A DNA stretch of 63,939 nucleotides, filler included, from Sanchytrium tribonematis (Eukaryota), in assembly GCA_018985235.1 (NCBI GenBank). It is 21 parts of 21 records of this genome, joined end to end, with 100 filler letters (N's around TTAATTAATTAA, not from the genome) between each part and the next. Parts side by side here need not be neighbours in the genome. Positions count along the whole stretch, not along the records: positions 1,589 to 18,838 come from JADGIG010000125.1; 20 more parts are not named here. One strand, 5' to 3'. Position 1 is the first letter of the stretch. Every line of letters begins with the position of its first letter. The notes below the pieces were generated by a model. The model ran no database searches, was not told the DNA's origin, and worked only from the letters and a program-made list of their open reading frames with translations. The position numbers were made by a program, and so were the translations under genes. Shown piece after piece: positions 1,589 through 36,353 of the stretch.

Positions 1589-1944
1589 TCTTGTTCAATC
1601 ATGGAGGAATTCCAGAGGTCGAACATATAATGTCTCTGCTTTGTTTTGTCATCGCACTGAGTGGTGTTTTTGACTGCCAGAGTATTAGCTTGCAATTCTA
1701 CAGGAGCCTCGCCTTTTGCGTGGTCATACACATGCAATTTTGAACAATCTCCTGTGGTTGTATACGTTGCAGTACTGTAAACAAAACTATCACTTATTAA
1801 GGAATTGAGTTTGGTCGAGTTTGTTACAGTTGGAACGACAGTGTCGGAGCTTTTGTCATAGTTGATTGATAATACGCATGATCCTGCCAGGCCAATCGAT
1901 TTTTTTACTTGCTCAGCAAACGCAAAATATAAAAAGGTCAACAT
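1589..1944 (-). CDS. Putative secreted protein, 3'-partial
   Basis: Short hydrophobic N-terminus MLTFLYFAFA followed by a Thr/Cys-containing region, open to the contig end. Confidence 0.55.
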
Positions 1945-2050
1945 AGATTGGATTTGGAGAGGATGCGGAATTTATAGCAAAAATGACGTGACGAATGTTA
2001 TGGACGTAGCTGGAAGATGTGACTGCAGCATTTCAACTTCAAAAAAAGGT

Positions 2051-2779
2051 TTATTTGTCTTCTAATATACGCTTTGCATACTCGACGCCATCAAGTTGAA
2101 CATTATAAATCCCATCATACCCTTTTGCGTACATTTTGCTCATTACTGGATAGTCCATTCCATTAAAGCCTCTTATATATTTATGCTGATCAAATACCCA
2201 ATAAATCAAACCTATGCTAAAGGCAGCTTTCAATAGTCCTTTTGCATAATCCCAGGTGCTTTTACCGGTGTTTTCCTTGTGGTACATCGTGGGAGTAAAT
2301 GAACCCAAAATATCGTCTTCCTCATGAAGAGGATCACCAATGTTTCTGCGGTCCCAAGGGTCATCGTAATTTCCATAAGGATCTTTATCAGTAACGTATT
2401 TAAATTCCCCGTTTCTCCAAATTGCGGGATGTTGTCCTTCTATTTTGCCCAAGTCGTAAGCACCAAATGGCAAAATACCGTCCGGGCGGCCAGAGGCTTC
2501 TTTAGACCACTTTATTGGATTACCCCAGTCATTTTCTAGTAAATTATTATATCTAATTGCAGCATCGTCTGATGGTAGATTTTGGATATCTTTGATCTCG
2601 TAATCAACAAGCTGAAAAGGGTCCGGGATGTCTTCATATTTTGTACTGCTGACTGGCTGATCAAATTGGGCATAAACATCAAGAGCATGTGGATCGGGTT
2701 TGTAGTTTGTTGTCAAATTACCTGTCATAAATGTTGGAAGTTTCCCAAGTAAAATTTTGGAGTGGAGTTTGGAAAACAT
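2051..2779 (-). CDS. NDUFB8: NADH:ubiquinone oxidoreductase subunit B8 (ASHI)-like
   Basis: DPYGNYDDPWDRRNIGDPLHEEDDILG matches the NDUFB8 signature. A single TM follows, and the N-terminus resembles a mitochondrial presequence. Confidence 0.8.
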   Translation of the reverse strand: MFSKLHSKILLGKLPTFMTGNLTTNYKPDPHALDVYAQFDQPVSSTKYEDIPDPFQLVDYEIKDIQNLPSDDAAIRYNNLLENDWGNPIKWSKEASGRPDGILPFGAYDLGKIEGQHPAIWRNGEFKYVTDKDPYGNYDDPWDRRNIGDPLHEEDDILGSFTPTMYHKENTGKSTWDYAKGLLKAAFSIGLIYWVFDQHKYIRGFNGMDYPVMSKMYAKGYDGIYNVQLDGVEYAKRILEDK

Positions 2780-2865
2780 TTGTATCAAAATTTGCTCCAG
2801 ATTTTCCAGTACAAGAGATGCATTAAAGCAATTTTATTTATTTATTAAAGCTTGAGTTGATAATT

Positions 2866-3294
2866 TTACTTGTTGGAAGTTTCGAGCTGCTGAATATGCC
2901 TAAAAAATAAGAATAGTTCTGCAAATAATACTAATAGGCAAAGCAACAAAGACGTAAGAACTTTGAAGGGAACATCCATAGTACCTGTAGCATACCATGA
3001 AGCTAAAAAAACGCTCGCAGCAGTAAATCCACAATTACCTATTCCAATAAACATTGGCTTGTCTTCCAAATAGTTATCCTCTGGCGGAGTCCGCAAATTT
3101 AAAAATTTCGATTTAGGATATTTCGGCTTGTCTGAATCTATTCTTGAAATAAAAGGGCTAATATCTTCAGCTATTTGCAGAACAAGTGAAATCGGGACAC
3201 GATGTTCATACAGTTTTAATTCATTTAGCTCAGTTGTGTTTGCTAATTTGGATAGATTCTCAAGTTGCAATTCCGATAGATTGAAATATAACAT
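2866..3294 (-). CDS. VMA12: ER V-ATPase assembly factor Vma12/TMEM199-like
   Basis: PK.PKS..L..R region, then two C-terminal TMs (N.GFTAASVFLASWY...LLVLFAELFLF). Confidence 0.6.
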   Translation of the reverse strand: MLYFNLSELQLENLSKLANTTELNELKLYEHRVPISLVLQIAEDISPFISRIDSDKPKYPKSKFLNLRTPPEDNYLEDKPMFIGIGNCGFTAASVFLASWYATGTMDVPFKVLTSLLLCLLVLFAELFLFFRHIQQLETSNK

Positions 3295-3323
3295 TCAAAG
3301 AAATGAAATAAAGGAGAAATGAT

Positions 3324-3470
3324 TTATTTCTTGTTCTGATGATTCTTGATATATTCTTGCAACACTTCGTTTTCTAGGGCTGTAAAAGAGATAGTCGCAT
3401 TTACGCGATCCTCCTTTGTTACCTGAGGATCTCTAAAAATTGCCATACTAACTTTGGTAGAAATATCCAT
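3324..3470 (-). CDS. Small 48-aa ORF, unknown function
   Basis: MDISTKVSMAIFRDPQVTKEDRVNATISFTALENEVLQEYIKNHQNKK. It fills the gap between VMA12 and RRS1, and its stop lies within AAATAAA like neighbouring genes. Confidence 0.4.
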   Translation of the reverse strand: MDISTKVSMAIFRDPQVTKEDRVNATISFTALENEVLQEYIKNHQNKK

Positions 3471-3505
3471 TTATCAAGGAGTAAACAACCGTTTGGGCAA
3501 AATCA

Positions 3506-4180
3506 ATGAGTACAGAAGTAGAACGAGAAATTCCAATGGCGATTGATCTGGGAGCATTGACTGTTGTGGATACTCTAGAAGCTCAAAAAATGAATGAAGA
3601 TAGGTTACGATCTCGAACTAGAGATAGTTGTCAATTGTTGATCAATCAATTATTTCAAGCAGACAGAACTACAGATGAAGATGGGATATACGCACAACTT
3701 CCAAAAGTGGTAACAGTCTTGCCTCGTGAAAAGCCCCTGCCTAAACCAAGAACACTCACAACCTGGGAAAAATTTGCTAAAAAGAAATGTATCATTAAGA
3801 AAAAAAATAGTGCTGTCGTTTTAGATGAAGAAACTAACGAATATAAACCGCGTTATGGCAGAAAGAGCAAAGCAAACGAGGTGCCATGGATTATCGAAGG
3901 AAAAATGAATGATGAGATTGATGCAGATCCTTATGCCGATAAGAAAAAAGCCAAAATAGAGCGAGTGGATAAAAATCAAAAGCAAAGAACTCAAAATATT
4001 AAAAAATCGGAGAAAAAGCAGGAAATCCAGAAAATGATCGAGCAAACAGAAGGCAGCAGAGTTGTACCTAAAGGTGGTAAGAAGAGAAAGGCGCCTTTGG
4101 TTACTGGTGATAAAGATATGAATGAGAAAAACAAAATGAGAAAACTAATGAATGAAGTTATGTTTAAAAAAGATAAATAA
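3506..4180 (+). CDS. RRS1: Ribosome biogenesis regulator Rrs1
   Basis: DLGAL, RDSCQLLINQLF, LPREKPLPKPR.LT.WEKFAKKK and PRYG motifs. Confidence 0.95.
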   Translation: MSTEVEREIPMAIDLGALTVVDTLEAQKMNEDRLRSRTRDSCQLLINQLFQADRTTDEDGIYAQLPKVVTVLPREKPLPKPRTLTTWEKFAKKKCIIKKKNSAVVLDEETNEYKPRYGRKSKANEVPWIIEGKMNDEIDADPYADKKKAKIERVDKNQKQRTQNIKKSEKKQEIQKMIEQTEGSRVVPKGGKKRKAPLVTGDKDMNEKNKMRKLMNEVMFKKDK

Positions 4181-4199
4181 ACATTTTCTAATTTCGGCC

Positions 4200-6047
4200 A
4201 TGTCAGATAATTCTATTCAAATTTATGCAAGAGTAAGGCCTTCTAGAAACCCTTTACCTGGTATTGAGATTGATGATGATAAGATTAAATTGAAAGTGCC
4301 TAAGTCAGATCAAGGCTTAATTAATCATCAAAAGGAAAATTATAACTTTCAATTTAACTCCGTTTTTCAAGATAGATGCTCACAAGTAGAAGTTTTTGAT
4401 AAAGTTGCATTGAAAATACTACTGCATGTGATGGAGGGATATCATGGTACAATATTTTGCTATGGTCAAACTGGAACTGGTAAAACATATACAATGACAG
4501 GTGGCAATGAAAATTATCAACAACGAGGTCTAATGCCAAGAGCGATTGAGTTTATATATAGCCATATTTTAAGACATTCGGAATACAAATATGATGTTGG
4601 GTGTTCCTATTTAGAAATATATAACGAGAACGGCTATGATTTACTAGATGATGCTAGGGATGCTTCGAAATTAGAAGAATTGAAAAGGGTTAACATTTTG
4701 GAAGATGAGGCAGGAAATTTTCATCTGAAAAACCTCAGGATAATGCCAAGTAATTCTGAAGATGATGCAATGAATTTCCTGTATTTGGGAGACACCAACA
4801 AAATGATGGCAGAGACTCCTAGTAATCCTCAATCATCAAGAAGTCATTGCGTTTTCACTCTTCATGTTCAAAGATCTGAACCGGGAAGCTCAAAGATTAC
4901 CAAAAGTTTACTACACCTAGTCGATTTGGCAGGTTCCGAACGAGTCTCAAGGACCGGCATTGACGGCAGGCTTTTGAAAGAGGCAAAGCACATAAACTTG
5001 AGTCTCCATTATTTAGAGCAGGTAATTATTTCATTACAGGATAAGGGTCGAAAGAAGCACGTTCCATACCGCAACTCAATGTTAACATGCATATTGAGGG
5101 AAGCTTTGGGTGGCAATTGTAAAACTACTATGATTGCAACGTTTGCCAACGAGGAAGGCTGTTTAGAGGAAGGGATTTCTACTTTTAGATTCGCTCAAAG
5201 GGTTGCTCTGGTTTCTAATAACGCGCATATCAATGAAGAGCTTGATCCAACTGCAATGATTCATTCTTTAAAAGTTGAAATTAAAAATTTAAAATGCCAG
5301 TTGTCTATGTTGACAGAGGGACATGATTTTGGTGATCTTACAGATATAGATACGGAATATTTAGATGAGAAGGCTAAGAATTTTATTGAAAAAGAGATTT
5401 CAGCAACTGATCTCATTACTCCAAACTTAAAGAAACTAGAGTACTTATTTAATGTAATTAGAAACAAATTTACTGAAAAGCGGTCGGCTCCTAAGCGAGA
5501 AGATTCAGGAAAGTCAAATTTTTTTGAAATTAGTGAGATTAAAAGACTCAATAACATGCTTTTCCAAAGAGATCAAGAGATAAAGATTCTTCTCGATTCT
5601 CAGTCAAAAGCAAAACCGTTGCAAACGGTATCAAAACAAATGGAATCTTTTAAATCATTTGACACCAACAAGAAGGAGGAATATTTCGAAGAGTTTAAGA
5701 AACAATACGATCGACTTCAATGGATAGAAGATCTTAAAAAGAAATATAACTCAACGGTATTAAGCGCGCAGTCTGCAAATAAGAAACTTGCTTTGATTAA
5801 AAGCCAAATTCAAAAGGAGCAGAACCACTCAAGCCCAGAATGCATTGCTTTCATCCAAGAGTACAAAGCTATTTTTGATAGCATTAAAGAAAAAAAACGA
5901 ATTTTGGACCACAACAAGCATCTTTTGGAGAAAAGCAAAAGTCAATTAAAAAACGATTTTGAGGCTTGGCTATTAAAAAAACAATCGAAGACATCAAACA
6001 GAAGTGAGTTTGAGCAACTTAAGCAATCTTTTACAGAGCAATTATAA
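4200..6047 (+). CDS. KIF6: Kinesin-9 family motor (KIF6-like)
   Basis: YGQTGTGKT, SSRSH, LVDLAGSER and INLSLHYLEQVI (KIF6/9-type), with a coiled-coil tail. ATG 4200. Confidence 0.85.
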   Translation: MSDNSIQIYARVRPSRNPLPGIEIDDDKIKLKVPKSDQGLINHQKENYNFQFNSVFQDRCSQVEVFDKVALKILLHVMEGYHGTIFCYGQTGTGKTYTMTGGNENYQQRGLMPRAIEFIYSHILRHSEYKYDVGCSYLEIYNENGYDLLDDARDASKLEELKRVNILEDEAGNFHLKNLRIMPSNSEDDAMNFLYLGDTNKMMAETPSNPQSSRSHCVFTLHVQRSEPGSSKITKSLLHLVDLAGSERVSRTGIDGRLLKEAKHINLSLHYLEQVIISLQDKGRKKHVPYRNSMLTCILREALGGNCKTTMIATFANEEGCLEEGISTFRFAQRVALVSNNAHINEELDPTAMIHSLKVEIKNLKCQLSMLTEGHDFGDLTDIDTEYLDEKAKNFIEKEISATDLITPNLKKLEYLFNVIRNKFTEKRSAPKREDSGKSNFFEISEIKRLNNMLFQRDQEIKILLDSQSKAKPLQTVSKQMESFKSFDTNKKEEYFEEFKKQYDRLQWIEDLKKKYNSTVLSAQSANKKLALIKSQIQKEQNHSSPECIAFIQEYKAIFDSIKEKKRILDHNKHLLEKSKSQLKNDFEAWLLKKQSKTSNRSEFEQLKQSFTEQL

Positions 6048-6086
6048 ACTTAATCAATAAAAAATTGAATAATATTTTAGGCCAAG

Positions 6087-7493
6087 ATGGATGATTCTCA
6101 AAAATCCGCACTTGTTGCTGAGGCAGACTATTTTTTTAAAAAGTCCGACTTGGAAAAAGCACTTGAGCTATATTCTAAAGTACTAACACTAGATGCGGAC
6201 AAACACAGTTTATTATATCGAGGTTATTGCTATTCCTCGAACGCAGACTATGATTTGGCATTAAAAGACGTGGAAACGCTTTTAAAGGTGGATTCAAACA
6301 ATTTTAAAGGAATCTTACTAAAAGCCAGTATTCTTTTCGACATGGGAGAATTTGAAATGTCATTGATTCTCTACATCAAAGCCCTAAATATGAAAGGGGG
6401 AGAAGAAGTGGATGCGGGTATATTTAAATGTAAAAATGCAATTTTGACATTATTTAATGATTCGGATGATTTTGGAGAAATGCAAGATCTAGACAAACTC
6501 ATAAAACGTCACATGCCGGATTTCGCGTCTGATTATTATTTTTTAAAATCAATTTCAGCCCAATTTGCAGAATCCAAAGATGTTCAAATTTCTCAAATTG
6601 CTGAGGACGGTTTATGTTATTTGAAAAAACGACTAGAATTTTGGAAAAACTACAAGCATCACGATAAAGTTGATGGCAAGAAAATAAGGGCAAAAGTTTC
6701 GCAAGAACTAAAATCAATAAAAGAAAAAAGAAAATTGCCTAGCCTGCCAAGCAAAAAAAATCATAGTAAGAAAAGCGTGTCAAACAAGCAACCAAGTCTA
6801 GTACAAGAATCCACAAAGGATTTGTCGCCAGAGTTGCTTTCGCAAGAAGATTTATGTAGAAGAATTAGAAAAACGTTTGAAAATGAGGATTTTAAATATG
6901 TTAAAATTTTATGCGAGGAGTATCTGAGAAGAGAGATTAAAATAGCCGGAAAACCTACGGCTCAGCAATATTGCGATGTTTTGCTGGATTATTCGCATGC
7001 GCTTTTAGAATTGCAAGAGTCTCTTGAAATTTCAAAGGCAAAAGCATCACAAGTGAAAAATATAACTCAAGTATTTCAACTCAACTCTTACTATCCAAGA
7101 TGCTTAAATATATTAGGGAAATGCTATGCCAAATCAGAAAAATTTGAAAAAGCTATTAAGCTGTGGGAAGAAAGAATGAAATTTGATAGTAGCCCAGTGG
7201 AAAAAGCATGGTTGTACCACGACTTGGGAAAGTGCTACCTGTCTCTTGGGAAAATTGACAAAAGCAAGGAATGTGGCCGATTGAGTTTGGAATTCAGCGA
7301 CCAAATAGGTAGTAGATCATGGTCAGCTGCATCGAAAATTCTATTGGGACAATGCTTTGAAGCTGAGGGATATGTCTGGGATGCGATATCTTACTTTGAA
7401 AAAGCGGTTAAATCGGCAAGAGCTTGCGGAGACAAGTCTCAACTGAACGGTCTAGAACAGCACCTGGTGCGTCTAAGAGCATCAATCAAATAA
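6087..7493 (+). CDS. TTC25: TPR protein, outer dynein arm docking complex subunit 4 (TTC25)-like
   Basis: N- and C-terminal TPR blocks. GEFEMSLILY, YL..RLEFW and EKAWLYHDLGKCYL resemble TTC25/ODAD4. Confidence 0.7.
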   Translation: MDDSQKSALVAEADYFFKKSDLEKALELYSKVLTLDADKHSLLYRGYCYSSNADYDLALKDVETLLKVDSNNFKGILLKASILFDMGEFEMSLILYIKALNMKGGEEVDAGIFKCKNAILTLFNDSDDFGEMQDLDKLIKRHMPDFASDYYFLKSISAQFAESKDVQISQIAEDGLCYLKKRLEFWKNYKHHDKVDGKKIRAKVSQELKSIKEKRKLPSLPSKKNHSKKSVSNKQPSLVQESTKDLSPELLSQEDLCRRIRKTFENEDFKYVKILCEEYLRREIKIAGKPTAQQYCDVLLDYSHALLELQESLEISKAKASQVKNITQVFQLNSYYPRCLNILGKCYAKSEKFEKAIKLWEERMKFDSSPVEKAWLYHDLGKCYLSLGKIDKSKECGRLSLEFSDQIGSRSWSAASKILLGQCFEAEGYVWDAISYFEKAVKSARACGDKSQLNGLEQHLVRLRASIK

Positions 7494-7573
7494 ATTTTAT
7501 TTGTGAAACTTGTACAATATTTGTGACCGAAAATTTCCTTCATGTGAGTACCCCTGGCAAGTCACTAATATCT

Positions 7574-9412
7574 ATGTCACAAATAACTAGAAGAGAGCGT
7601 TGGCCATCGCGTTTTGCTTATGTCGTTGCGTCTGCCAGCTCAGTCATAGGTATTGGAAATTTTCTTAGATTTCCTGGAATAGCCGCAAAACATCCAGGTA
7701 TAACATTTTTAATACCCTATTTTATATTAACATGGATTGTAGGATACGTCATAATCTCATTTGAGACTGCCACAGGAGAAATGTATAGATCAGGAATAGT
7801 GACTTTCTTCGATAGAGTTTATAAAAGATTTCGTGGATTCGGTATACTTCAGATGGTTTCCACGCTACTTACAATTTCTTACCTCAATGTCATACTTGGT
7901 TGGTTATTCATTTACATGATTAGGTCCAGTTATATGCCTTGGACTTACGATCCTCAAGAATATTTTCAAATTTATGTCTTGAATCAAAAAAGGTTTCGTT
8001 TCGATGTCTTGGCTGTCAGTATTCTTAGTGCAAGTGTGGTATGGATATTTTTATTCATGAGTATTTATAAAGGTGTCACTCACACAACAAAGATAGTTTA
8101 TATGACTTTGCCATTGTCTATATTAATGATGTTTATGTTGCTTCTGCGATCATTGACACTAGAAGGCTCGGGAACTATTTTATATAACTTTGTGACACTA
8201 ATAGATTGGGAAGCACTAGTTCGAACCAGAATTTGGCTAGAAGCCTTGGGACAAGTTTTATTTAGTTTGTGCATTGGAATCGGATCTTCATGTGCATACG
8301 GTTCTTATAGAATTAAAGACGGATATCTTATGAGAGATTGCTTCTCTATTGTACTTTTAAATTTATTGATTGAAATGTTTGGATGGATTATTATTGTTTG
8401 CATTGGAGGATATGAAGGATGGTCTAATACTGACATTGCAGAAAACAAATTCTCTCTGGCATTTGTCTTATACCCACAACTAGTACTAAAATTGCCATTT
8501 GCCTCATCCTGGAGTTTTCTTTATTATTTATTCATGTTGACATTTGGAATTAATTGCTCTCATGCTTCTTTAGAAAGCGTTGTTACAACATTGTTAGATT
8601 CTAAAAGATTTTCGAGATATGGACGTGTGAGAATTACCGCTATGGTCACACTAATTGGTTTATTAATGAGTGTTGTGTTTTGTGTATTTATAAGAATCAT
8701 AGAACCGGTAGATTATTTTACCAGTAACTTTTTACTAGTGATGGCTGGATTAGGTGAGATTCTCGTAGCTGGATACTTTTATAACAAAAAACTCGTCTCG
8801 CAACAATTAGGTTCAACAACAGTTAATATAGCTTATTATTCTTGGCTGCTAGCTCCACTCATCTCATCATTTCTGTACTATATTGTGGGTGATTATGTCA
8901 CTTGTTTGGTTATGGGATTTTCTATTTTTTTCATGGGATCTGCATTTGCTACTTTTACTACTCCATCTAAATTGTCTGCCAAGAAGATATTGAATTTGCT
9001 TTTCACTTATCAAGGTAAAATATTGATTCACCATTACAACGACACCCTACGAATGTCTGAAAGAACCTATTTCAAACTAAATATGTGGTGGTTCATATTT
9101 ATCAAATTCATATCGACACCTTTAATGATTTGCCTGTTATCTGTCTCAATTTTTCATTTGCCTAGTTACCCTTTAGATTATTTTATTGTGGGCGTTCTAC
9201 TTTGCATCATGGGAACAGGCATTGTCATTGCGCCTTACTATTTTCCCAATGCTTATTCATCATTTGTTCCCGAAGATAGAGTTGAAGAAGAAAGTAAGCT
9301 GCATCTGGATGAATGGCTAAGATATTGGTTTAGAAAAGAGCGTAAAATTTTAAGCGGCGAAACTCCGCCAAATTCGAGAACTGTGAGTGTGGTAGGTCAA
9401 AATGCATTCTAA
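7574..9412 (+). CDS. Sodium:neurotransmitter symporter (SLC6/NSS) family transporter
   Basis: RERW.SR, IGIGNFLRFP, FLIPY and W.EALGQVLFSL motifs; about 12 or more TMs. Confidence 0.9.
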   Translation: MSQITRRERWPSRFAYVVASASSVIGIGNFLRFPGIAAKHPGITFLIPYFILTWIVGYVIISFETATGEMYRSGIVTFFDRVYKRFRGFGILQMVSTLLTISYLNVILGWLFIYMIRSSYMPWTYDPQEYFQIYVLNQKRFRFDVLAVSILSASVVWIFLFMSIYKGVTHTTKIVYMTLPLSILMMFMLLLRSLTLEGSGTILYNFVTLIDWEALVRTRIWLEALGQVLFSLCIGIGSSCAYGSYRIKDGYLMRDCFSIVLLNLLIEMFGWIIIVCIGGYEGWSNTDIAENKFSLAFVLYPQLVLKLPFASSWSFLYYLFMLTFGINCSHASLESVVTTLLDSKRFSRYGRVRITAMVTLIGLLMSVVFCVFIRIIEPVDYFTSNFLLVMAGLGEILVAGYFYNKKLVSQQLGSTTVNIAYYSWLLAPLISSFLYYIVGDYVTCLVMGFSIFFMGSAFATFTTPSKLSAKKILNLLFTYQGKILIHHYNDTLRMSERTYFKLNMWWFIFIKFISTPLMICLLSVSIFHLPSYPLDYFIVGVLLCIMGTGIVIAPYYFPNAYSSFVPEDRVEEESKLHLDEWLRYWFRKERKILSGETPPNSRTVSVVGQNAF

Positions 9413-9506
9413 CATGTGCTTTAGCATTTAATTTTATATGTGGTAAAACGTTTTAGAATATGTAACCATTCATCAAATAAATTTGAGAACTTCCCCTGTA
9501 ATTGTA

Positions 9507-10946
9507 ATGCTGATTCTCCAAATATTTTTGGGTCAGCTTCTTCTGAATATGGCTCAAAGATTCGAACAACTTGATACCAAAATCAAATTTAATGCATCTC
9601 AGCCCAGCTTCAACTCAGGGGTGGCATCGGGCGATCCGAAGCCAGATAGGGTAATATTGTGGACCCGTGTGGAAAATTACACAGGGGGTGTGGATATTTA
9701 CATTAGCGAAGACAAGTATTTTAAAAACTTTACTAAAAGCAAGACCAGTACAAGTCCTGAAATTGATTTTATAGTAAAAGTTGACATGGTGAATCTCAAG
9801 CCTGGTACCACGTATTACTACAAATTTAGTGCAAAAGGTCTCGAATCGGAAGTTGGAAAAACAAAAACATTGCCGCTTGATACGGCCGAGTTGAAAGTAG
9901 CTGTAGCAAGCTGTGCAAATTATCCTTACGGATATTTCACTCCTTATCACAATATGGTTAGCTTGAAAGTCGATCTTTTGATTTTTTTAGGAGACTACAT
10001 ATATGAATACAAAAATGGAAAATACGGTGATGGGACAGATAAAGGCAGAATTCCAAACCCAAACCGGGATTGCATTACATTAGAAGATTATAGAATGAGA
10101 CATTTGCAATATAAGAAAGACAAGGATGTACAATTAATGCACAAAAATATACCTATGATTGCCGTCTACGACGATCATGAATTTGCAAATAATGCTTATA
10201 AAAATGGAAGTCGAGATTATCCCGATTTGTTCAAGGAAAGAAAATATGCTGCTATGCGTGCTTATTTCGAATATATCCCAATAAGAGTTTTTCCAAGTGA
10301 AATTGATGCCCCAATTTATCGGACTTTTGAAATTGGAAACCTTTTGGAACTGATAATGCTTGATACCAGAATTTATAGAGATGTGTCAGATGTGCGCGAC
10401 CCAAAAATTGTAGGCAGTCCTAATCGAACAATACTTGGAACAGAGCAAGAAGCCTGGTTAGAAAACTTACCTATCAAAAAAACTAAATGGACATTTTATG
10501 GAAATCAAATTCTTTTTAGTGTTTTCTTTTCTCCATTGCACAAGCTTAATATACCGCTTGCGATTGACGCTTGGGATGCGTATCCTGCAAGCAGACGAAA
10601 AATGATCAATTTTATACATCATCGAAATCAAGCATCAAATTCTACACCAATTATTCTAAGTGGCGATCTGCATGTATCTATGCTAAACAAAATAAGCGGA
10701 ATCACAGAAATTGTCACACCAGCAGTAGCTTCTCCAAGTATTGAGCGCAAATCAATTGCTACTTTTACAGAAAAACTACTTAAACTAAACGGCGAAAATC
10801 TGTGGTCGAATCTAAACGACAAAGGATTTGTACTATTAAATATCAAGTACGACAAGATTGATGTGAAATGGATTCACTGTAAAGTATCGGAGTTCCCAAA
10901 ATCATATGACTTTAAAGTAGGGTTTGAAACTGTCCTTAGTAATTAG
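9507..10946 (+). CDS. phoD: PhoD-family alkaline phosphatase
   Basis: GVASGDP.PDRVILWTR, LGDYIYE, DDHEFANN, LDTR, DAWDAY and LSGDLH motifs. Confidence 0.93.
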   Translation: MLILQIFLGQLLLNMAQRFEQLDTKIKFNASQPSFNSGVASGDPKPDRVILWTRVENYTGGVDIYISEDKYFKNFTKSKTSTSPEIDFIVKVDMVNLKPGTTYYYKFSAKGLESEVGKTKTLPLDTAELKVAVASCANYPYGYFTPYHNMVSLKVDLLIFLGDYIYEYKNGKYGDGTDKGRIPNPNRDCITLEDYRMRHLQYKKDKDVQLMHKNIPMIAVYDDHEFANNAYKNGSRDYPDLFKERKYAAMRAYFEYIPIRVFPSEIDAPIYRTFEIGNLLELIMLDTRIYRDVSDVRDPKIVGSPNRTILGTEQEAWLENLPIKKTKWTFYGNQILFSVFFSPLHKLNIPLAIDAWDAYPASRRKMINFIHHRNQASNSTPIILSGDLHVSMLNKISGITEIVTPAVASPSIERKSIATFTEKLLKLNGENLWSNLNDKGFVLLNIKYDKIDVKWIHCKVSEFPKSYDFKVGFETVLSN

Positions 10947-11110
10947 AAAATAAATATTCATAGATATATGCGAAACTGATTATTTGCGTAATAATCAAAG
11001 TTTGAAGACGTGAAATCATGGATTGGGCCACTAATGACGAGATTTCGCCAAAAGTTACGTGATTCAACCAATAGATAAAATATAAATTCCATGACTGGTT
11101 ACATTGATTT

Positions 11111-11935
11111 ATGCTTCTTACTGTATACCTAATCTGTTTTTGTGTAGATATCAGGGATCATGATTTAGGAGCTGACAAATCAAATGCAATAATGGATGTG
11201 GCAAATGTAAATACGACATCCGGTCTAACTAACGGAACGCTGTATGAATCAATTAAACACTCTACAGCTGCAGAAGTTGCAGTATCCGCCGGGGCATCCT
11301 GGTCGATTTGGAAAATACTAGGCACTCTAGCAAAAACGCAAGGTGCAATGATGTTGAATTATGTTTTAAATGAATTCCCAGTTTTTGAACAATTTCTTCA
11401 CGAAATCACCGAGAAAAAAGATCCCGATTATTTTTACGAAATATTTCTGGATGAGTTGAATGTAATATTGAAAGATAGAACTGACAATCAAATTCAGTTG
11501 CCAGATTCCCATGCTCTTAAAACATGGATTCAGGAAACAGAAGAAGGTACAGAATTTGCTGTTAATGCAATCTTAAAGAAGTTTGGTAAAGAAATGAATG
11601 CAAAAGGGTCACAGGAAGGACTTAATGAATTGCAAAAGGTACATCAGAAATTGAATATTGATGTCAAACGAATTGCGGATCATCATGTAACCTATTTCAA
11701 GCAATTGCCTGATCAGACTGCCCTACAATTTTCTGACGTTGTGAATGTAAAATTAAGAAGTCTAAAAAAACCCTTTTGGAGGAGAATGGCAGATAGCTGG
11801 AAAAAGGTATCAAAACGAAATAAGATATTGTCATTAGCTGGGTCAATAGTTGGCGGTGCTCTCATTGCCTTTTTGCTAACTAAACATTTCAATCATCACT
11901 CCAAAGATAGAAAACAAATTTCAGGGCTGCAATAA
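11111..11935 (+). CDS. Hypothetical protein with short N-terminal hydrophobic segment and C-terminal TM
   Basis: 274-aa ORF; MLLTVYLICFC at the start and ILSLAGSIVGGALIAFLL near the end. Confidence 0.65.
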   Translation: MLLTVYLICFCVDIRDHDLGADKSNAIMDVANVNTTSGLTNGTLYESIKHSTAAEVAVSAGASWSIWKILGTLAKTQGAMMLNYVLNEFPVFEQFLHEITEKKDPDYFYEIFLDELNVILKDRTDNQIQLPDSHALKTWIQETEEGTEFAVNAILKKFGKEMNAKGSQEGLNELQKVHQKLNIDVKRIADHHVTYFKQLPDQTALQFSDVVNVKLRSLKKPFWRRMADSWKKVSKRNKILSLAGSIVGGALIAFLLTKHFNHHSKDRKQISGLQ

Positions 11936-12003
11936 ATTGTTTGTCAAATACTTTGTGAATACTGTGGCGAAGGGATATTCCAAGCCCAACCCCTCACCCC
12001 TTC

Positions 12004-12486
12004 ATGTTTGGTTGTCACTGGGCAAACTGCAAAAAAATCTGCCATACAGATCTGGCCTTGTATCATCATGTTATCTACTTTCACGTGCCACAATTTGAGC
12101 GATATTCCATTTTGCGATGTGACTGGAAAAAATGTTATTGCTATTTTAAAACAAGAGCAGAATTGATAAGTCATATCAAATGTCACTTGAGGCGTCCTAC
12201 ATTTAGGTGTGTAGAATGTGGGAAATGGTTTAACAGTAAAAATGAATTCTCAAGACATAAGGCCTTTCATGGCCATTTGAGAACAGAAAATTATACCGAG
12301 GCACCAATTCAGTTGCCCTTTCAACCCGTAAAAGCGGTAGTAATGGAATGGCCTGTTAGTGAGACTTTGCCAACTACAAAAAATGATGTGCTATTATATC
12401 CAAAAATACCTGAATTTGAAAACACTTTATCCAAATTAAGATTGACGCTCAATATATATATTAGAAGAGCTGTAATTACAAAATAA
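12004..12486 (+). CDS. C2H2 zinc-finger transcription factor (PacC/GLI-like Trp-containing fingers)
   Basis: Three fingers: CHWANC...H...H, CDWKKC...HIKCH and CVEC...HKAFH. Confidence 0.8.
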   Translation: MFGCHWANCKKICHTDLALYHHVIYFHVPQFERYSILRCDWKKCYCYFKTRAELISHIKCHLRRPTFRCVECGKWFNSKNEFSRHKAFHGHLRTENYTEAPIQLPFQPVKAVVMEWPVSETLPTTKNDVLLYPKIPEFENTLSKLRLTLNIYIRRAVITK

Positions 12487-12530
12487 ATTAAATTCTTATG
12501 AAAACAAGTTTTTCTGAAAATTAGCCCCGT

Positions 12531-13357
12531 ATGTTTGCAAGAAGTTTGGCTGTAGTCATTCCCACTGCTGGTGTCCTGTTTGCGTATAAAAAGGCAGATG
12601 CAGCTATAGAAGATGACGGACTTCATCCGACCACTTTTCCATGGTCCCATAAAGGCCCTTTGAGTGGATTTGATCATTTTTCAATAAGACGTGGATTTCA
12701 AGTGTATCAAGAAGTTTGTTCTAGTTGCCATTCATTAGAAAGACTCGCATTCCGTAATTTAGTAGGAGTTTCTCACACCTTAGAGGAAGCAAAAGGATTG
12801 GCTGAAGCAATCGAGGTCGAAGACGGTCCAAATGATGAAGGTGAAATGTATATGAGACCAGGAAAACTCAGCGACTATATTCCAAGTCCTTATCCTAATG
12901 AACAAGCTGCCAGAGCTGCCAATGCTGGTGCTTACCCTCCAGATTTATCTTTAATTGTAAAAGCTAGACATGGTGGTGAAAATTATGTATACTCACTTCT
13001 AACTGGATATAATGATCCACCCGCTGGTGTGGAGGTGCGAGAGGGTCTCCACTATAATCCTTACTTCCCCGGTGGAGCCATTGGTATGGCACAAAATATT
13101 TATGATGAGGTAGTCGAATTTGAGGATGGTATTTATTAATTTATGAAGGAACTCCTGCCTCGGCTTCTCAAATTGCCAAAGATGTGGTCACTTTTCTTGC
13201 TTGGGCTAGTGAACCGGAATTAGAAGAAAGAAAGCGACTAGGTTTGAAAGCACTTGTACTTTTTGCTGGATTATCTGCAGCGTCCTTATACATGAAAAGA
13301 CATAAGTGGTCGTATTTGAAATCTCGTGTAATACTTCCACCAAAAATTAAAAAGTAA
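12531..13357 (+). CDS. CYT1: Cytochrome c1, two exons (12531-13128, 13149-13357)
   Basis: CSSCH haem motif and PPDLSLI. Removing the intron gives [38 protein letters not shown], a TM and [11 protein letters not shown]. Confidence 0.95.
13129..13148 (+). other. 20-nt spliceosomal intron (GTATTTATTAATTTATGAAG)
   Basis: GT...AG ends, an in-frame TAA inside, and removal exactly restores the conserved EDGTPA of cytochrome c1. Confidence 0.88.
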
Positions 13358-13361
13358 ATTT

Positions 13362-13814
13362 TTATTTTCCTTCTGGATCTTTCAACAAGGGTAAAAGTTT
13401 CTTCTTGGTCATAGACTCCACTTGTCGAACAACAAATTTGTTTCTTCCTTTATAAGGAAAAAACATTCTGCTTGGATGCCTAAAATTCTCAAAAAATGGT
13501 CTCATTTCATACGCTTGAATGTCAGTATGTTTGATGTCTGGCGTGAAGCTCGGTAGATCTATGTCTTCTGTCAAAGTAACAATGGCTTTCTTATATCTTT
13601 TTCTGTCCCTTCGTGATCGATCCTTATTTATATGCATTATCATTGTATTTACTTTCAAACAATCAATTTCATAAATTTGCTTCAAGTAGTCCTTGATATC
13701 TAGCTTATTAAAATGAAGAGGAACCATGAATTGTGCCTCATTTTTCGCTTTGGTGCTATTTAAAACTAGTCTAAATATCGCAGAAGGAAAGAAAACTTTT
13801 CGTTGTGAATTCAT
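13362..13814 (-). CDS. MRP20: Mitochondrial ribosomal protein uL23m
   Basis: VFFP, F.VPL.FNKLDIKDYL..IY...KVNT and YKKAIVTL. Confidence 0.85.
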   Translation of the reverse strand: MNSQRKVFFPSAIFRLVLNSTKAKNEAQFMVPLHFNKLDIKDYLKQIYEIDCLKVNTMIMHINKDRSRRDRKRYKKAIVTLTEDIDLPSFTPDIKHTDIQAYEMRPFFENFRHPSRMFFPYKGRNKFVVRQVESMTKKKLLPLLKDPEGK

Positions 13815-13836
13815 CTAACAAGGGATTTCCAAAAAA

Positions 13837-14775
13837 ATGCAAGCTTCATGGGATTTGGACTCGTTTGCAATGGTAGATGAACTGATAGAAACTCCAGTTA
13901 AACAAGGTCATCCCGAGAATCAACCTAGAATTTTGCCATATTATGATGATAGCGAAGCTGATGAAAACTTTAGCCCTGTAAAATGTTCAAAGTCAAGAAT
14001 GACCGAGAAGAATGATATTTTAGAACGCTTGATGAATCAGGAGCACAAAAAGCAGACTCTTATATCTCAACACCATAATATAAGTGAAAAATTGCTTGAA
14101 AGGAGTCGGTCGAAAGAGAGTAGCCCGACAAAATTTGCAGGTGCAGCTTATAAAAGGCCATCTGAATATCCAGTCGATAAAAAACTGAATTCTCAAATAC
14201 CTGTAAAGAAATTTTTGCAAAATCTCAATTACACTCCTATACCAGAAAAGAATTTTAAAAATGAACCTAATCAATTGCTTATTCAAAAGCCTCCAATTAT
14301 AAAAAGTGACTCAAAATATAATGATTGGAAAAGTGATGAAGGAGATTCAAATATAGAATTAAAAATTGATCCTTCAACTCAAGACCTTGTTCAAAATCAT
14401 GTGAAGAAATCTATGGATGAATCAGTGCAAGTAGAGATTCACAAAGATCAATTAGAGCTTGTTCAAAGTGTTAGTGTTGGAATTCAGTTTAGTACTGAAA
14501 TGACGAGTATATCTGTACAGGCTGGCGAATTCAAACCTAAACCTTTGATTGTAAATATGGGGACTCAAACAAATTTAGATTATTTTGATCCACTTCTCTC
14601 CTTGTCGAAATTATCCATAAAAGAAGAATTGGAAAAACCAGCCGTGCCTATGGAAAAACTTAAGAAACCAAATTCGGACAATTTGTTGAAAAACATTACC
14701 ACTAAGAAAATACCCAACTATAAACAAATGCTACTTCAGAGATTCATTAAGGATGTACATAAGCTAATGGATTAA
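13837..14775 (+). CDS. Hypothetical low-complexity protein
   Basis: 312-aa ORF with several S/T-x-x-x-Q segments (SVGIQ, SISVQ, NMGTQT); family not recognised. Confidence 0.65.
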   Translation: MQASWDLDSFAMVDELIETPVKQGHPENQPRILPYYDDSEADENFSPVKCSKSRMTEKNDILERLMNQEHKKQTLISQHHNISEKLLERSRSKESSPTKFAGAAYKRPSEYPVDKKLNSQIPVKKFLQNLNYTPIPEKNFKNEPNQLLIQKPPIIKSDSKYNDWKSDEGDSNIELKIDPSTQDLVQNHVKKSMDESVQVEIHKDQLELVQSVSVGIQFSTEMTSISVQAGEFKPKPLIVNMGTQTNLDYFDPLLSLSKLSIKEELEKPAVPMEKLKKPNSDNLLKNITTKKIPNYKQMLLQRFIKDVHKLMD

Positions 14776-14818
14776 TAAATACTTGTTCCTGACTTGTGTA
14801 ATTCCAAACACTCCTTTG

Positions 14819-15787
14819 ATGGACTTGCCCAACTTAATTTTGCATGATATTGGTTTAAAAGAGTGCCTAGATCAATTGCTAGATGCACCTGAGGGACAAA
14901 TTGCTTCCTTTTTGACTTACACTGCTATCAAGCCATTGAAATTAGACAATATGATAGCATGCTCCAAATTTATGATTGAAAAAGCTTCAAAGATCAGCCT
15001 TCCAAACGGGGTTGACTTAGTGGGTACCGGAGGTGATGGACACTCTACAATTAATGTCTCAACAATAAGTGCATTAATTGCAGCTTCCATGGGAGTGAAA
15101 ATGGCAAAGCATGGAAATAGGTCTGCGTCTTCTAAATGTGGAAGTGCTGACTTTCTAGAGCATTTAGGGTATGATCTACTAAAATCTGATGAGGAAATTC
15201 GGTTGAATTTTGAAAAGTATAATTTTGCATTTCTTTATGCACCAAAATACCACTCGTCTATGAAAAAGTTAAAATCCATTAGAAAAGAGCTTGGATTTCC
15301 CACGATTTTCAATCTCATGGGACCCTTAACAAATCCGAGTTTGCCTAAAAAAGCTGTAGTTGGTGTGGCAAAACCAGAATGGGGCCAGCTAATGGCAGAA
15401 TGTTTAATTGCCCAAAATTACGAGCGAGCAATGGTTGTTTGCGGGTTTGAGTGCTTGGACGAGATTTCACCATGTGGTAAAACACACTCTTGGCTAGTCG
15501 AAAATGGTAACTTTAAGTATTTAATATTGGAACCGTCTTTATTTGGATTGGCGCCACATTTATTGGAAGACATTAAAGGAGGTGATGCTTCATACAATGG
15601 AAATATATTTAATACTCTTGTGAACAACTGCGATGATATTCCAGCAATTAGGGACGTTATTTGCATAAATGTAGCGGCATTATTATGGGTAGATAGAGGA
15701 ACAGAATTTAAAGCTGGCATAGAATTGGCAAAAGCTCATTTAATTAGTGCAAATTTAAAAGATTTCTTAAAAAATATCTTAAAGTAG
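14819..15787 (+). CDS. TRP4: Anthranilate phosphoribosyltransferase
   Basis: DLVGTGGDG, NVST, KHGNRSASSKCGSAD, TIFNLMGPLTNP and LDEISP. Confidence 0.95.
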   Translation: MDLPNLILHDIGLKECLDQLLDAPEGQIASFLTYTAIKPLKLDNMIACSKFMIEKASKISLPNGVDLVGTGGDGHSTINVSTISALIAASMGVKMAKHGNRSASSKCGSADFLEHLGYDLLKSDEEIRLNFEKYNFAFLYAPKYHSSMKKLKSIRKELGFPTIFNLMGPLTNPSLPKKAVVGVAKPEWGQLMAECLIAQNYERAMVVCGFECLDEISPCGKTHSWLVENGNFKYLILEPSLFGLAPHLLEDIKGGDASYNGNIFNTLVNNCDDIPAIRDVICINVAALLWVDRGTEFKAGIELAKAHLISANLKDFLKNILK

Positions 15788-15789
15788 TG

Positions 15790-16716
15790 CTAAATTCGCA
15801 GCGATGATATAAATTGGTTGCAGCAGAGTTGCTTTTGATCGTCAATTCTCTCTCGCCAATTTCCAGCACTGGAAAATAAATGTGTCAATAAATCTAGATA
15901 TCTGGGATTCTGGATTGTCAAAATTTCGCTATTTTCAATGACAAACGGAATAGTGGACCCTCGTTCAAAATCAAATGTAAAATTACAAAAAGTTTTCTTT
16001 GGTAATTTTTTTTGCAAGTCCCTATCTAAACCAACAAAACTAATAAAATCATGCATTCTATCAGATGTGAGTTTTTTCTTAGCTATCCAAAAGATAGTTT
16101 GGTAATTCATAATTTCGAGGCAATTGTTAATTTTTATAAATACATTTTTCAGCTCGTCTACAAAATTTGTATTTAATTTAAAAAGCTCCATATGTTCAAT
16201 CGGCACAATCAATCCATGCGATTCAGAGATAGGTCCTTTCGCAGCGGTTATATACACAGAATTTAAAACATGAGTAACTAATGAGGTATCAAACCCACTT
16301 GAAGACATACAAAACCAGCATTCAAACTTTTTTCGCTTTGGCAACCGATTTTTTTGGACCGGCTTAGAATTCAGAGGGGAAAGAAGCTCCATGGCGTATA
16401 TATCAGGAAGATCTTGGTAATTATCCGGCAAAAAAACCTGATATTGTTCATTTTCTGCAACTGATATAATTTTTGTAAACACTTTCTTAATTGGGTAGAA
16501 TAAAAATGCATCTGAAATTTGTTGATGGTAGTGCCAATTGTCATTTTTCCAAACAAGAAAGCCATTTTGAAAAATGTCCTGAACTTTTGTTTGCAAACCA
16601 ATTTTGAAGACAAAACGTTTTACCAAAGTCTTTTTACAGCCGTCTAACTCGATGCCTTCGACTTCGCTTGAAATTACCAATTGATTGTCGACATTTTTAA
16701 CTACGACTTTTTGCAT
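15790..16716 (-). CDS. Cwf19-like (CWF19L1/Drn1) protein with CwfJ C-terminal HIT-like domain
   Basis: CWFCMSS...YITAAKGPI...HGLIVPIEH and a terminal WRE motif. Confidence 0.75.
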   Translation of the reverse strand: MQKVVVKNVDNQLVISSEVEGIELDGCKKTLVKRFVFKIGLQTKVQDIFQNGFLVWKNDNWHYHQQISDAFLFYPIKKVFTKIISVAENEQYQVFLPDNYQDLPDIYAMELLSPLNSKPVQKNRLPKRKKFECWFCMSSSGFDTSLVTHVLNSVYITAAKGPISESHGLIVPIEHMELFKLNTNFVDELKNVFIKINNCLEIMNYQTIFWIAKKKLTSDRMHDFISFVGLDRDLQKKLPKKTFCNFTFDFERGSTIPFVIENSEILTIQNPRYLDLLTHLFSSAGNWRERIDDQKQLCCNQFISSLRI

Positions 16717-16741
16717 GGTTTCTAAAAAATTCCAAAATTTA

Positions 16742-18622
16742 TTAAGTCAACTTTTTTTTACGATAAAACCTAGTTTCTTCAGGATCAAACCCTTTTTCAA
16801 CACTACCATATACAGCCCAATCAGGTGTTTCCTGCATATAGTCGGTGCTTGTGAAAGTATTTCCGGATTTCAATAGCCGATGAAATTGGTCAAAATCAAT
16901 CCAAGTGTGCCACTTGTTATTTATCTTAAATTTAGTGTTACTGATTAGAACACAGCAAGAATGCTCATGCTCGCAAGAGATCTCGTATGTATGTCCAAAT
17001 TTTTCATTAAAAGCTTTCACGAGAATTGTACAAAATCTCACAACTTCCACATGATATGGAACATTTTTCATTGTGAGACTGGAAGCTTCCGAATTGCCAC
17101 AATATGTGACACCCTTGACCTCAATAAAATCTGGTACTCCAATCTTTAATAAATCGACATATTCTTCAATCTCGCTCATATTGAATTCTTTAACAAGTGT
17201 CAGTCTATAAACAGTTCTTTGACCCTTACTTTTTAAAAACTCCAAACTGGACAAGAATCTTTCCCAAAAATCACCAAATAAAGGCCTGTCAACCTCTTTA
17301 AGGGAATCCTTGGTAGAAGCATCAATAGAAACATACAATTGCGTCACTGGTTTCAAATCGCGAATGGCCTCAGGAAATTGAGCGTTGGTAACTAAAAATG
17401 ACGATATTTGCTGTTTGTGCAGCAAGTCTAAGAACTCGTTGATTTTCGGATACATAATTGGCTCTCCTACAAGACTTAATGCACAATGTCGCACAGTTTT
17501 AGCTTCCTCAAACCGCTCTGGAATAACCCCCGGCATGCCTTTTAGCTGCTTAATCATCTGCTGGTGGTTTGCAATAGCACCATCAATTATTTCTTCCGGC
17601 TCATTCATTTGCCATCTCCAACTCGTTCCGACGGGGTTGCTATGATGTCTCCAACAAAACACACATTTGTTCGCACAGGCTAAGGAGGGAGTAGTTTCCA
17701 TGCATAGATGCGATGCAATATTATAAAAAGTGTGCTTATAACATCCACCCCGTCCCCGCAGCATCGATTTAGTCCATCGACAGATTTTCACGCCTGAATG
17801 AGATCCAATTATTTTGTAGCCTTGCTTCGTAAGAGATTTATGAAGCAGTGGGGTGACCATTGGCTTAGCTGGATCTTGTGAGACAATATCAGTCGATCTT
17901 GAATCAACTATTGTGTTTTGATTTCTGTTTCTCAATTTGCTTTCAGTTATTTTTTCTGCCATACCAGACATTTCTTCAAGGTCAAGAATATCACCGTCGT
18001 TTTCACTGTCTGAATTATACATATCAATAGCTTCATCCTCCATTTTGTTTAAATAATTACAAATATTCTTAGACCACTTTTGAAAACTTTTTTCCATTTC
18101 ATTATTTCTGTCACCGCAAAGGAGTGGAGCGATACGAATAGCTCCCATTTGCTTCAATTCCTTGTCAACTTTTTTGCCAAACCTACAATAATTCAGTTTA
18201 TATTCTGAATCGCCTAACGCAAAAACTGAGTATTTCAGTTTAAACGCTTTACTTACTCTGAAGTCATCTACCACATCTTTCAACCATACAGAAAACCAAT
18301 CCGCGGTATCTGGAGCTAAACCGTCAGTCCAAGTCGAGAGTATAAACAAACAAATGGATTCCTCTTGAAAGAAGTCTTCTGTATCGTAATTGCTTATATC
18401 TATGATTTTCGAATTCGGAATTTGTTTCTGCAGATCTGCGGCCATCTGTTTAGAAGTTAATGTAGTTGTGGCATAAAATATTTTCACACTCTGAGATAAT
18501 GATTGCGAATCAACGATAGGATATTTTCTGGTTGTCTTTCGTTTATAGATGATCACAAACGCGAGAATTGCCATCAAAATTTGAATCCTATAGGTAGAGT
18601 ACAAAGTCAGTAAAAACTCCAT
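16742..18622 (-). CDS. TYW1: tRNA wybutosine synthesis protein 1 (flavodoxin plus radical SAM)
   Basis: N-terminal TM, a flavodoxin domain, GSHSGVKICRWTK, CANKCVFCWRH and HCALSLVGEP. Confidence 0.97.
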   Translation of the reverse strand: MEFLLTLYSTYRIQILMAILAFVIIYKRKTTRKYPIVDSQSLSQSVKIFYATTTLTSKQMAADLQKQIPNSKIIDISNYDTEDFFQEESICLFILSTWTDGLAPDTADWFSVWLKDVVDDFRVSKAFKLKYSVFALGDSEYKLNYCRFGKKVDKELKQMGAIRIAPLLCGDRNNEMEKSFQKWSKNICNYLNKMEDEAIDMYNSDSENDGDILDLEEMSGMAEKITESKLRNRNQNTIVDSRSTDIVSQDPAKPMVTPLLHKSLTKQGYKIIGSHSGVKICRWTKSMLRGRGGCYKHTFYNIASHLCMETTPSLACANKCVFCWRHHSNPVGTSWRWQMNEPEEIIDGAIANHQQMIKQLKGMPGVIPERFEEAKTVRHCALSLVGEPIMYPKINEFLDLLHKQQISSFLVTNAQFPEAIRDLKPVTQLYVSIDASTKDSLKEVDRPLFGDFWERFLSSLEFLKSKGQRTVYRLTLVKEFNMSEIEEYVDLLKIGVPDFIEVKGVTYCGNSEASSLTMKNVPYHVEVVRFCTILVKAFNEKFGHTYEISCEHEHSCCVLISNTKFKINNKWHTWIDFDQFHRLLKSGNTFTSTDYMQETPDWAVYGSVEKGFDPEETRFYRKKKLT

Positions 18623-18647
18623 GTTTGACACCTTTTTATTATTTTTG

Positions 18648-18797
18648 TTAATGATTCATATAACACAATTTAAATTCTTCGACTTCTTTTTTGCACTTCC
18701 TCCAGTCTTTGTGTTCATTGTAACATAATAATACATTTTCGTTCAATTTAAGACATGGACCATCTTCAATTTGATATTTTTCGGCATTTTGTATCAT
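18648..18797 (-). CDS. COA4: Twin CX9C mitochondrial protein, Coa4-like (49 aa)
   Basis: Own translation: ...GPCLKLNENVLLCYNEHKDWRKCKKEVEEFKLCYMNH, a CX9C-DWRKC-X9C pattern. Below the ORF-track cutoff. Confidence 0.75.
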   Translation of the reverse strand: MIQNAEKYQIEDGPCLKLNENVLLCYNEHKDWRKCKKEVEEFKLCYMNH

Positions 18798-18938
18798 AAG
18801 GAGAATTGCCAAAAAACGTGTTTTTTGGACAAATAACANNNNNNNNNNNNNNNNNNNNNNNNNNNNNNNNNNNNNNNNNNNNTTAATTAATTAANNNNNN
18901 NNNNNNNNNNNNNNNNNNNNNNNNNNNNNNNNNNNNNN

Positions 18939-29766: not shown

Positions 29767-29939
29767 GTCGCACGCACGCTAGAGAGAATGTATTTATTGA
29801 GGGCCTTTAATAAGCCACCCCGATGCTGTAAACTCATTGNNNNNNNNNNNNNNNNNNNNNNNNNNNNNNNNNNNNNNNNNNNNTTAATTAATTAANNNNN
29901 NNNNNNNNNNNNNNNNNNNNNNNNNNNNNNNNNNNNNNN

Positions 29940-35580: not shown

Positions 35581-35744
35581 TTTTCAAGGAGTTTCAATTG
35601 ATTGATTTTGAGTGGCTCAAAAGTGACACAAGAAAAACATGTGATTGTGAAACAAATAGATTTTCAATCAACTTGCAATCATTTACATGTCATTTGATTG
35701 GCTTATATAATATTAAATTGTCAATTGTCTTTTCTTCAATTTTG

Positions 35745-36290: not shown

Positions 36291-36293
36291 TAA

Positions 36294-36316: not shown

Positions 36317-36353
36317 AAAAATTAATTAAATTCGTTACATCTCTTTTCCTTTC

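Follow-up and report, generated by a model that had tools for sequence, protein, structure and literature searches.

A probable 20-nucleotide spliceosomal intron in the cytochrome c1 gene of the sanchytrid fungus Sanchytrium tribonematis

Tiny spliceosomal introns have been described in heterotrich ciliates (15-16 nt), mikrocytids (16-17 nt) and the nucleomorphs of chlorarachniophytes (18-21 nt) (PMC10245619). Intron-poor lineages tend to have strong splicing motifs and lineages with short introns weak ones (PMC2483917). Our literature search, incomplete in its coverage, found no description of sanchytrid introns, and a remark on them in supplementary material is possible; the words intron and splicing are absent from the accessible text of the sanchytrid genome paper (PMC8371127), and introns this short are not mentioned in the available portion of PMC8476143. 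Published sanchytrid proteomes consist of ORFs predicted on genomic contigs with TransDecoder, without splicing (PMC8371127).

Here we analyze 63,939 nt (filler included) of the genome of Sanchytrium tribonematis, a fungus that parasitises algae (assembly GCA_018985235.1), referred to as the window, which comprises about 20 contigs with N spacers between them. The contig at positions 1589-18838 (17,250 nt, ~35% G+C; the genome has 34.6%, PMC8371127, Table 1) carries eukaryotic genes that use the standard code, abut one another and are almost uninterrupted. Gene order at 2051-18655 is very compact: RRS1 and kinesin, as well as TrpD, CwfJ and TYW1, overlap or abut by a few bases, and cytochrome c1 and MRPL23 are four bases apart.

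The cytochrome c1 gene is read in two frames. The upstream frame, exon 1 (12531-13128, + strand), encodes a short presequence and the heme-binding motif CSSCH, and aligns with chicken cytochrome c1 over residues 5-174 (E 7e-86). The downstream frame, exon 2 (13149-13357, + strand), begins GTPASASQ, ends with a C-terminal membrane anchor and a stop, and matches residues 173-235 of the chicken protein, anchor included (E 2e-21; both are PDB matches). The two frames align to consecutive stretches of solved cytochrome c1 chains and cover positions 1-164 and 162-217 of the 219 positions of Pfam PF02167. The CxxCH heme motif in exon 1, the full PF02167 domain and the C-terminal anchor identify the product as mitochondrial cytochrome c1.

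Between the two frames lies a 20-nt insert (13129-13148, + strand) that reads GTATTTATTAATTTATGAAG and has a G+C content of 15%, versus 42% and 39% in the flanking exons. It is in phase 1, beginning behind the first base of the Gly codon in EDG, which is the last base of exon 1; a TAA lies in frame at 13137-13139, and the insert displaces the reading frame by 2. Reading frames and homologue matches thus confirm the initial annotation, according to which the insert splits EDG-TPA, carries a stop and shifts the frame. The sequence EDGTPA had also been called invariant, which is nearly correct: TPA continues after DG in 101 of the 105 homologues that passed the filter of our script, while the first residue is often D and the motif is therefore not strict. 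Using a profile built from 116 full-length homologues, we evaluated every deletion of 1-45 nt that starts at 13105-13149 and restores the frame, 457 in all. The top score (484.2 bits) belongs to the 20-nt cut, tied with four slides that yield the same protein (13128-13132, five with the cut itself), and the cut 13129-13148 is the only one among the 457 with GT/GC..AG ends. Removing exactly 20 nt brings back the C-terminal anchor, as originally proposed, in a product of 268 aa.

Genomic reads lacking the 20 nt would speak against an intron, as the initial annotation pointed out; the 20 nt are present in a Logan contig of the DNA run X1, which covers 1589-14642 at depth 309 with 0 differing letters and 0 gaps. 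X1 may be the source of the window DNA, so this agreement is not independent. A search of sequencing runs with 8800-18700 matched one DNA run, and no RNA run among those listed. That the insert is an artefact of assembly or amplification, or that this cytochrome c1 gene is a decayed second copy, is highly improbable. This reading would draw on the whole-genome amplification behind the published sanchytrid genomes (PMC8371127), on the possibility that the sole DNA run with the insert is the source, and on a 1-nt frameshift elsewhere in the window, near 37832; against it stand the depth and gaplessness of the X1 contig, a break at the same codon in four other lineages, and conservation of exon 2 that equals that of exon 1.

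The proteins closest to the window cytochrome c1, whose upstream frame is an EukProt entry, are from Amoeboradix gromovi (82%) and from three ENA metagenome entries (79-83%), followed by Blastocladiomycota. In a one-gene tree (32 rows, 169 columns), the window protein, A. gromovi and the three ENA proteins form one clade with support 100/98. All four of these homologues leave cytochrome c1 at the same DG codon as the window, with the tails DDG-T (A. gromovi), DDG-TL and DDG-IL (two ENA proteins) and EDG-TCYSYRHTCYCISNS (the third). The public S. tribonematis protein and its A. gromovi orthologue are 201-202 aa long and have no anchor, because an ORF caller was run on genomic contigs; the earlier expectation that gene callers miss such introns was borne out.

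A query with exon 2 found P0124, an ORF beginning MVLVIHI-GTPA. P0124 and P0006 represent the gap read in two frames, their pairing being based on the equal length (12,293 nt) of their ENA contigs and on the fit itself. Only four DNA strings satisfy both proteins, and all are a 19-nt insert at the same site that starts GTAC, contains TATTCAT and ends (A/C)G behind the same G; when tails were shuffled, solutions appeared in 0 of 300 controls. Here and below, introns of relatives are decoded from protein tails, not from DNA. The intron-derived peptide of P0006/P0124 recurs on a second ENA contig (P0138). Exon 2 is conserved as strongly as exon 1: window and relative are identical at 51/62 positions in exon 2 (P0124) and at 140/169 in exon 1.

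These comparisons bear on two explanations without splicing. Ribosomal frameshifting or bypassing, in which the insert stays in the mRNA and the ribosome shifts frame or hops, is very unlikely. The two frames do overlap over a few codons, and the insert can form a weak hairpin within a longer stem (z -1.9, 10 of 200 shuffles equally good), but the 20 nt would require a -1 shift and the 19 nt of the relative a +1 shift; one frameshift could not serve both species, with their inserts of different length, whereas splicing can. Frameshifting would also add 6-7 residues to the DG-TPA turn that full-length homologues lack, bypassing would have to deal with a take-off codon (GGT) that differs from the landing codon (GGA), and GT..AG ends are preserved in two unrelated genes (see below). 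A split gene whose halves are made separately, or a truncated soluble cytochrome c1 in which the 202-aa half alone is used, deserves hardly any credence: ORF callers do give the halves as separate entries (P0001, P0124), but in the window the first Met of exon 2 comes no earlier than residue 49 of 69, though exon 2 is conserved from the first residue, and there is no space for a promoter. Complex III requires the cytochrome c1 anchor, which counts against the truncated form. A miniature intron, the reading first put forward for this insert, is the sole one that fits both the 20 nt of the window and the 19 nt decoded for the relative, and is supported on that ground.

Outside the sanchytrid clade, no intron was found in 80 metagenome loci related to cytochrome c1 (best 76% identical, none from this clade) wherever the DG motif could be located, and a degenerate search pattern spanning the intron and exon 2 had 0 matches in a collection of genome contigs and 0 in one of viral contigs. 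The partial Coelomomyces model P0013 departs at DDG and continues MGNT, while P0139 and P0140 of its cluster continue normally. This may hint at a same-site intron in the sister phylum, with a position predating sanchytrids, or at a contig-end effect. Human CYC1 may also carry an intron within this Gly codon, a lead that our literature search did not confirm.

A second candidate intron was found in an unrelated gene. It has 19 nt (58740-58758, - strand; GTTACTTTTATTCATTTAG), would lie in phase 1 within an Arg codon, has a candidate branch A at 58745, and was identified by scanning for GT..AG pieces that join open frames, here of 195 and 91 codons; the tails of paralogues provide further evidence (see below). 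Among 37 frame-joining candidates of 17-24 nt, it is the only one besides the cytochrome c1 intron within 1 mismatch of the 3' motif. The chance expectation for this fit is 0.017, with a background rate from 1 event in 2164 and a motif that was derived from the two cytochrome c1 introns and chosen once the second candidate had already been seen. Other frame-joining candidates from the scan were rejected as fusions of neighbouring genes.

The upstream exon of this gene (58759-59344, - strand) encodes an LRR-like protein with a Ser/Thr stalk, runs off the contig end and has 11 homologues (E up to 0.001). The downstream exon (58462-58739, - strand; coding score 10.2) encodes a Ser/Thr-rich stretch, a hydrophobic segment and a basic tail, followed by a stop. 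The LRR label of 58462-59344 was assigned by eye; the gene has no match in Pfam, its ESM Atlas search returned only matches below 0.9, and a word-based search for longer homologues found none. Seven of the 11 homologues (P0127-P0137) are named Sanchytrium tribonematis, and the other four are ENA members. Together with the cytochrome c1 tree and the G+C content, these names point to a sanchytrid, most likely S. tribonematis, as the origin of the window. The downstream exon weakly resembles the C-terminus of the full-length family member P0134 (9/31 identical, E 0.006 pairwise). A hydrophobic segment and a basic tail also form the end of three of the four ENA members, as they do in the downstream frame of the window, although the match is weak.

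Six of the seven S. tribonematis paralogues exit the stalk at an Arg and stop shortly after. Paralogue tails read R-ILYSF-R, R-IFNLF-R, R-SFDSY-R, R-IFLII-stop, R-KLFFI-stop and R-I-stop, the corresponding window sequence being R-YFYSF-R; the seventh paralogue ends R-NFNLC-R-TK. When every Arg in the last 50 residues was tried, six of the seven fitted a GT..AG intron with TYAT at -8..-5, of 19 nt in four cases and of 20 nt in two, the latter requiring that the stop codon be TAG; the paralogue that did not fit has a stop one codon past the Arg. The same fit was obtained in 0/4 ENA members, 2/116 cytochrome c1 C-termini and 6/70 window ORFs (one of them the LRR-like gene), and at 12/494 arbitrary CGT starts. 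The paralogues share ancestry and are therefore not independent events. As decoded, the pattern appears to be preserved in the DNA and not in the peptide. For the Ser/Thr-rich character of exon 2 as decoded from the tails, the test did not reach significance (48, 90, 252 and 22 of 400 null values were as high). Run X1 also contains a second gene copy, and over 151 nt we counted 12 differences between the two. Of these, two fall in the intron, at positions 5 and 8, and none in GT, TATTCAT or TTAG; the single difference in the downstream exon is silent only in the spliced frame. The LRR-like receptor family is expanded in S. tribonematis, and its public models end before the membrane segment, apparently at one common tiny intron.

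Taking these observations together, we are confident that 13129-13148 is a U2-type spliceosomal intron of 20 nt, which probably belongs to a small sanchytrid class of introns with 19-20 bases. Both window introns have GT and AG ends, and the relative (P0006/P0124) decodes as GT...(A/C)G; precise removal restores the conserved frame in cytochrome c1; and position is fixed while length and sequence vary, five clade proteins breaking at DG with 20 nt versus 19 nt. A U12-type (minor) intron was considered and rejected. The U12 consensus is RTATCCTT at the donor and TCCTTAAC at the branch; the donor here reads GTATTTAT, and a branch motif of the U12 type is absent. Non-spliceosomal excision of the Ire1 type has a vanishingly small probability. 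CNGCNG is the consensus at Ire1 borders, and none lies at the borders of the insert (the nearest are at 13021 and 13275); nor are there twin hairpins with cut sites in their loops, and what is conserved instead are GT..AG ends and a branch-like motif. The attraction of such excision is the matching size of HAC1/XBP1-like introns (19-26 nt), with 20 nt in filamentous fungi and 19 nt in Candida albicans, and with a border sequence given as CTGCAG (PMC2606855).

In the mechanism proposed for the U2-type intron, the major spliceosome would remove 20 nt from the cytochrome c1 pre-mRNA to yield a 268-residue protein with its membrane anchor. U1 and U6 would recognise a GTAY-type donor, U2 would pair with the WATTYAT motif, and the near-fixed intron length may help to define the splice sites. 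The 3' portion common to the cases is WATTYAT-N-W-AG. Relative to the U2 target TACTAAC, the C-to-T changes in WATTYAT amount to G-U wobbles at two C positions; in the alignment of the two, the A at -10 is the second base, and a pyrimidine precedes the branch A. The putative branch motif of the window intron, drawn from a comparison of eight cases, is AATTTAT (13138-13144, + strand), with a candidate branch A at 13143 (-6). A branch point at this A, six bases from the intron end, would produce a lariat loop of 14-15 nt and a 5-nt tail. TYAT at -8..-5 with A at -6 is present in the window intron and allowed in 8/8 other informative cases; the A at -6 is fixed in five cases and allowed in the rest. 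This pattern points to -6 as the branch position, the one known from Stentor.

A rather unlikely alternative is that the intron is real and spliceosomal, with 19-20 nt as the short tail of a wider length range and with the branch A at -10. Just two intron positions were looked at, the window intron contains a canonical-looking TTAAT (13136-13140, + strand; A at 13139, -10), and the A at -10 is fixed in the 19-nt cases. On the other hand, all nine length estimates (two read from DNA, seven decoded) are 19 or 20 nt, scans of the window up to 45 nt gave no further convincing frame-breaking intron, and P0131 excludes an A at -10 and has none at -9.

A CwfJ-domain gene (15790-16746, - strand; Pfam PF04677, E 2e-13), which we take to belong to the CWF19L1/Drn1-like splicing-associated family, lies 2.4 kb from the intron on the same contig. 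Spliceosome genes are known here from the A. gromovi annotation only, which lists Prp8, Brr2, SF3B1, Prp31, Prp38, the U2AF small subunit and Snu13 (PMC8371127, supplement 4). Rfam has 0 matches in the window and no snRNA there.

The sanchytrid lineage looks intron-poor. Within 32 Pfam-supported ORFs (26.9 kb), the only frame-breaking intron is the one in cytochrome c1, in a scan that misses stop-free introns of 18, 21 or 24 nt; three in-frame candidates of 18/24 nt are present in the window. Pfam scans covered 16, 134 and 141 ORFs, from 322 stop-free stretches of at least 33 aa outside longer ORFs, and no other family was split across two frames among the ORFs scanned, some short intergenic ORFs at 37-50 kb having been left out. 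The proposal of a miniaturised intron system thus stands in that a second gene family has 19-20-nt candidates, and has to be narrowed in that the genome looks intron-poor, with few tiny introns. GT plus the 3' motif occurs at nine window sites (null 2.5), mostly antisense or intergenic, and the motif alone is not specific; a 20-letter pattern search gave 1 match versus 0.38 expected. Two further pieces were observed. Directly upstream of the RRS1 start codon lies a GT..AG piece of 22 nt (3457-3478, + strand) that shares the 3' motif and is a possible 5' UTR intron. Near residue 117 of an SMC1-like coiled coil (26818-28278, + strand) there is an 18-nt GT..AG piece that is in frame and has no stop; it shares its start, GTTAC, and its end, TTTAG, with the second intron, and may be a hidden intron or chance.

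Other genes were noted in the window. A KIF9/KIF6-like kinesin lies beside a TPR protein, presumably TTC25-like (4152-7493, + strand); these are cilium-associated families, and the flagellum of this lineage is non-motile. A complete PhoD-family phosphatase (9447-10946, + strand; Pfam E 5e-81) belongs to a mostly bacterial family. At 35550-39296 (+ strand), a tandem array holds about six paralogous genes of 170-250 aa with almost no Pfam match, which to us look LURP-one/tubby-like; in the copy at 37551-38104 the break comes from the 1-nt shift near 37832, and an intron is not involved. Four secreted-type genes (39330-44172, - strand) have a common start, MLIA(F/L)(F/L)(G/A)VFGL, and otherwise unrelated sequences. 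Mobile elements are represented by a broken DDE (Tc1/mariner-like) transposase remnant (28804-29780, - strand) and a Ty3/gypsy-type gag-protease ORF (29941-31365, + strand).

None of the fungal spliceosomal introns in the literature searched is as short as 19-20 bases, and sanchytrid introns are probably the shortest spliceosomal class in fungi. If so, the fungal minimum moves from ~25 nt (microsporidia) to 19-20 nt, and a true fungus joins the few lineages at the apparent steric floor of the spliceosome. With the balance leaning slightly against it, we also entertain a broader proposal: that spliceosomal introns of sanchytrids are locked to 19-20 nt genome-wide, shorter than in any other fungus or opisthokont, and have their branch A at -6 within WATTYAT. 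This would be a further, independent route to the geometry seen in Stentor, here in a genome with few introns, and the branch-binding site of U2 snRNA may have changed to compensate. Being both intron-poor and short-intron, sanchytrids provide a test of the rule that relates motif strength to these two properties. Since public proteomes list truncated proteins as complete, some inferences of gene loss and domain loss in the phylum need re-checking, as does a receptor-like family apparently without a membrane anchor.

How does this locus compare with known systems? Ire1-spliced HAC1/XBP1 introns (19-26 nt) are alike in length only, being non-spliceosomal and having CTGCAG-type borders in stem-loops, which are absent at the window insert (PMC2606855). 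Chlorarachniophyte nucleomorph introns are also GT-AG and AT-rich at 18-21 nt, with a donor barely extending beyond GT(A), but nucleomorphs are intron-rich (>800 introns in ~300 genes) and their introns have no branch signature (PMC10245619, PMC2483917), whereas sanchytrids have a host-type fungal nucleus, rare introns and a common 3' motif. Mikrocytids, with introns of 16-17 nt, are likewise parasites with two adjacent lengths, conserved sequence and at most a few hundred introns; they differ in being rhizarians with a mitosome and 17-19 spliceosomal proteins, and their metabolic genes have no introns, while the sanchytrid intron sits in a respiratory-chain gene (PMC10245619). Ultra-short introns of myxozoans and dicyemids also reflect extreme shortening in opisthokont parasites, but these are animals with numerous introns and a longer median of 22-27 nt (PMC13644364). 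Microsporidia are similarly holomycotan parasites with an intron-poor, compact genome and GT-AG introns (PMC6349667, PMC3629993). Sanchytrids, in contrast, are true fungi sister to Blastocladiomycota, with the intron deep in the coding sequence, a looser donor, and a length 5-6 nt below the ~25 nt of Encephalitozoon cuniculi (PMC6349667). Short microsporidian introns are spliced at <20% (PMC6349667, PMC3629993). The sanchytrid break ruins an essential protein unless spliced; splicing must therefore be efficient, unlike that of most short microsporidian introns. Introns of Stentor coeruleus (15-16 nt) are alike in being GT-AG, AU-rich and of near-fixed length, in conserving an A six bases before the 3' end, with a 5-nt tail, and in occurring with the standard code in a genome where the majority of genes are intronless (PMC9505925). 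The sanchytrid introns are 4 nt longer, with a loop of 14-15 versus 10-11 nt and a branch that is inferred, and they occur in an unrelated lineage. Tiny spliceosomal introns are already known, and the sanchytrids would be a new lineage in which to find them.
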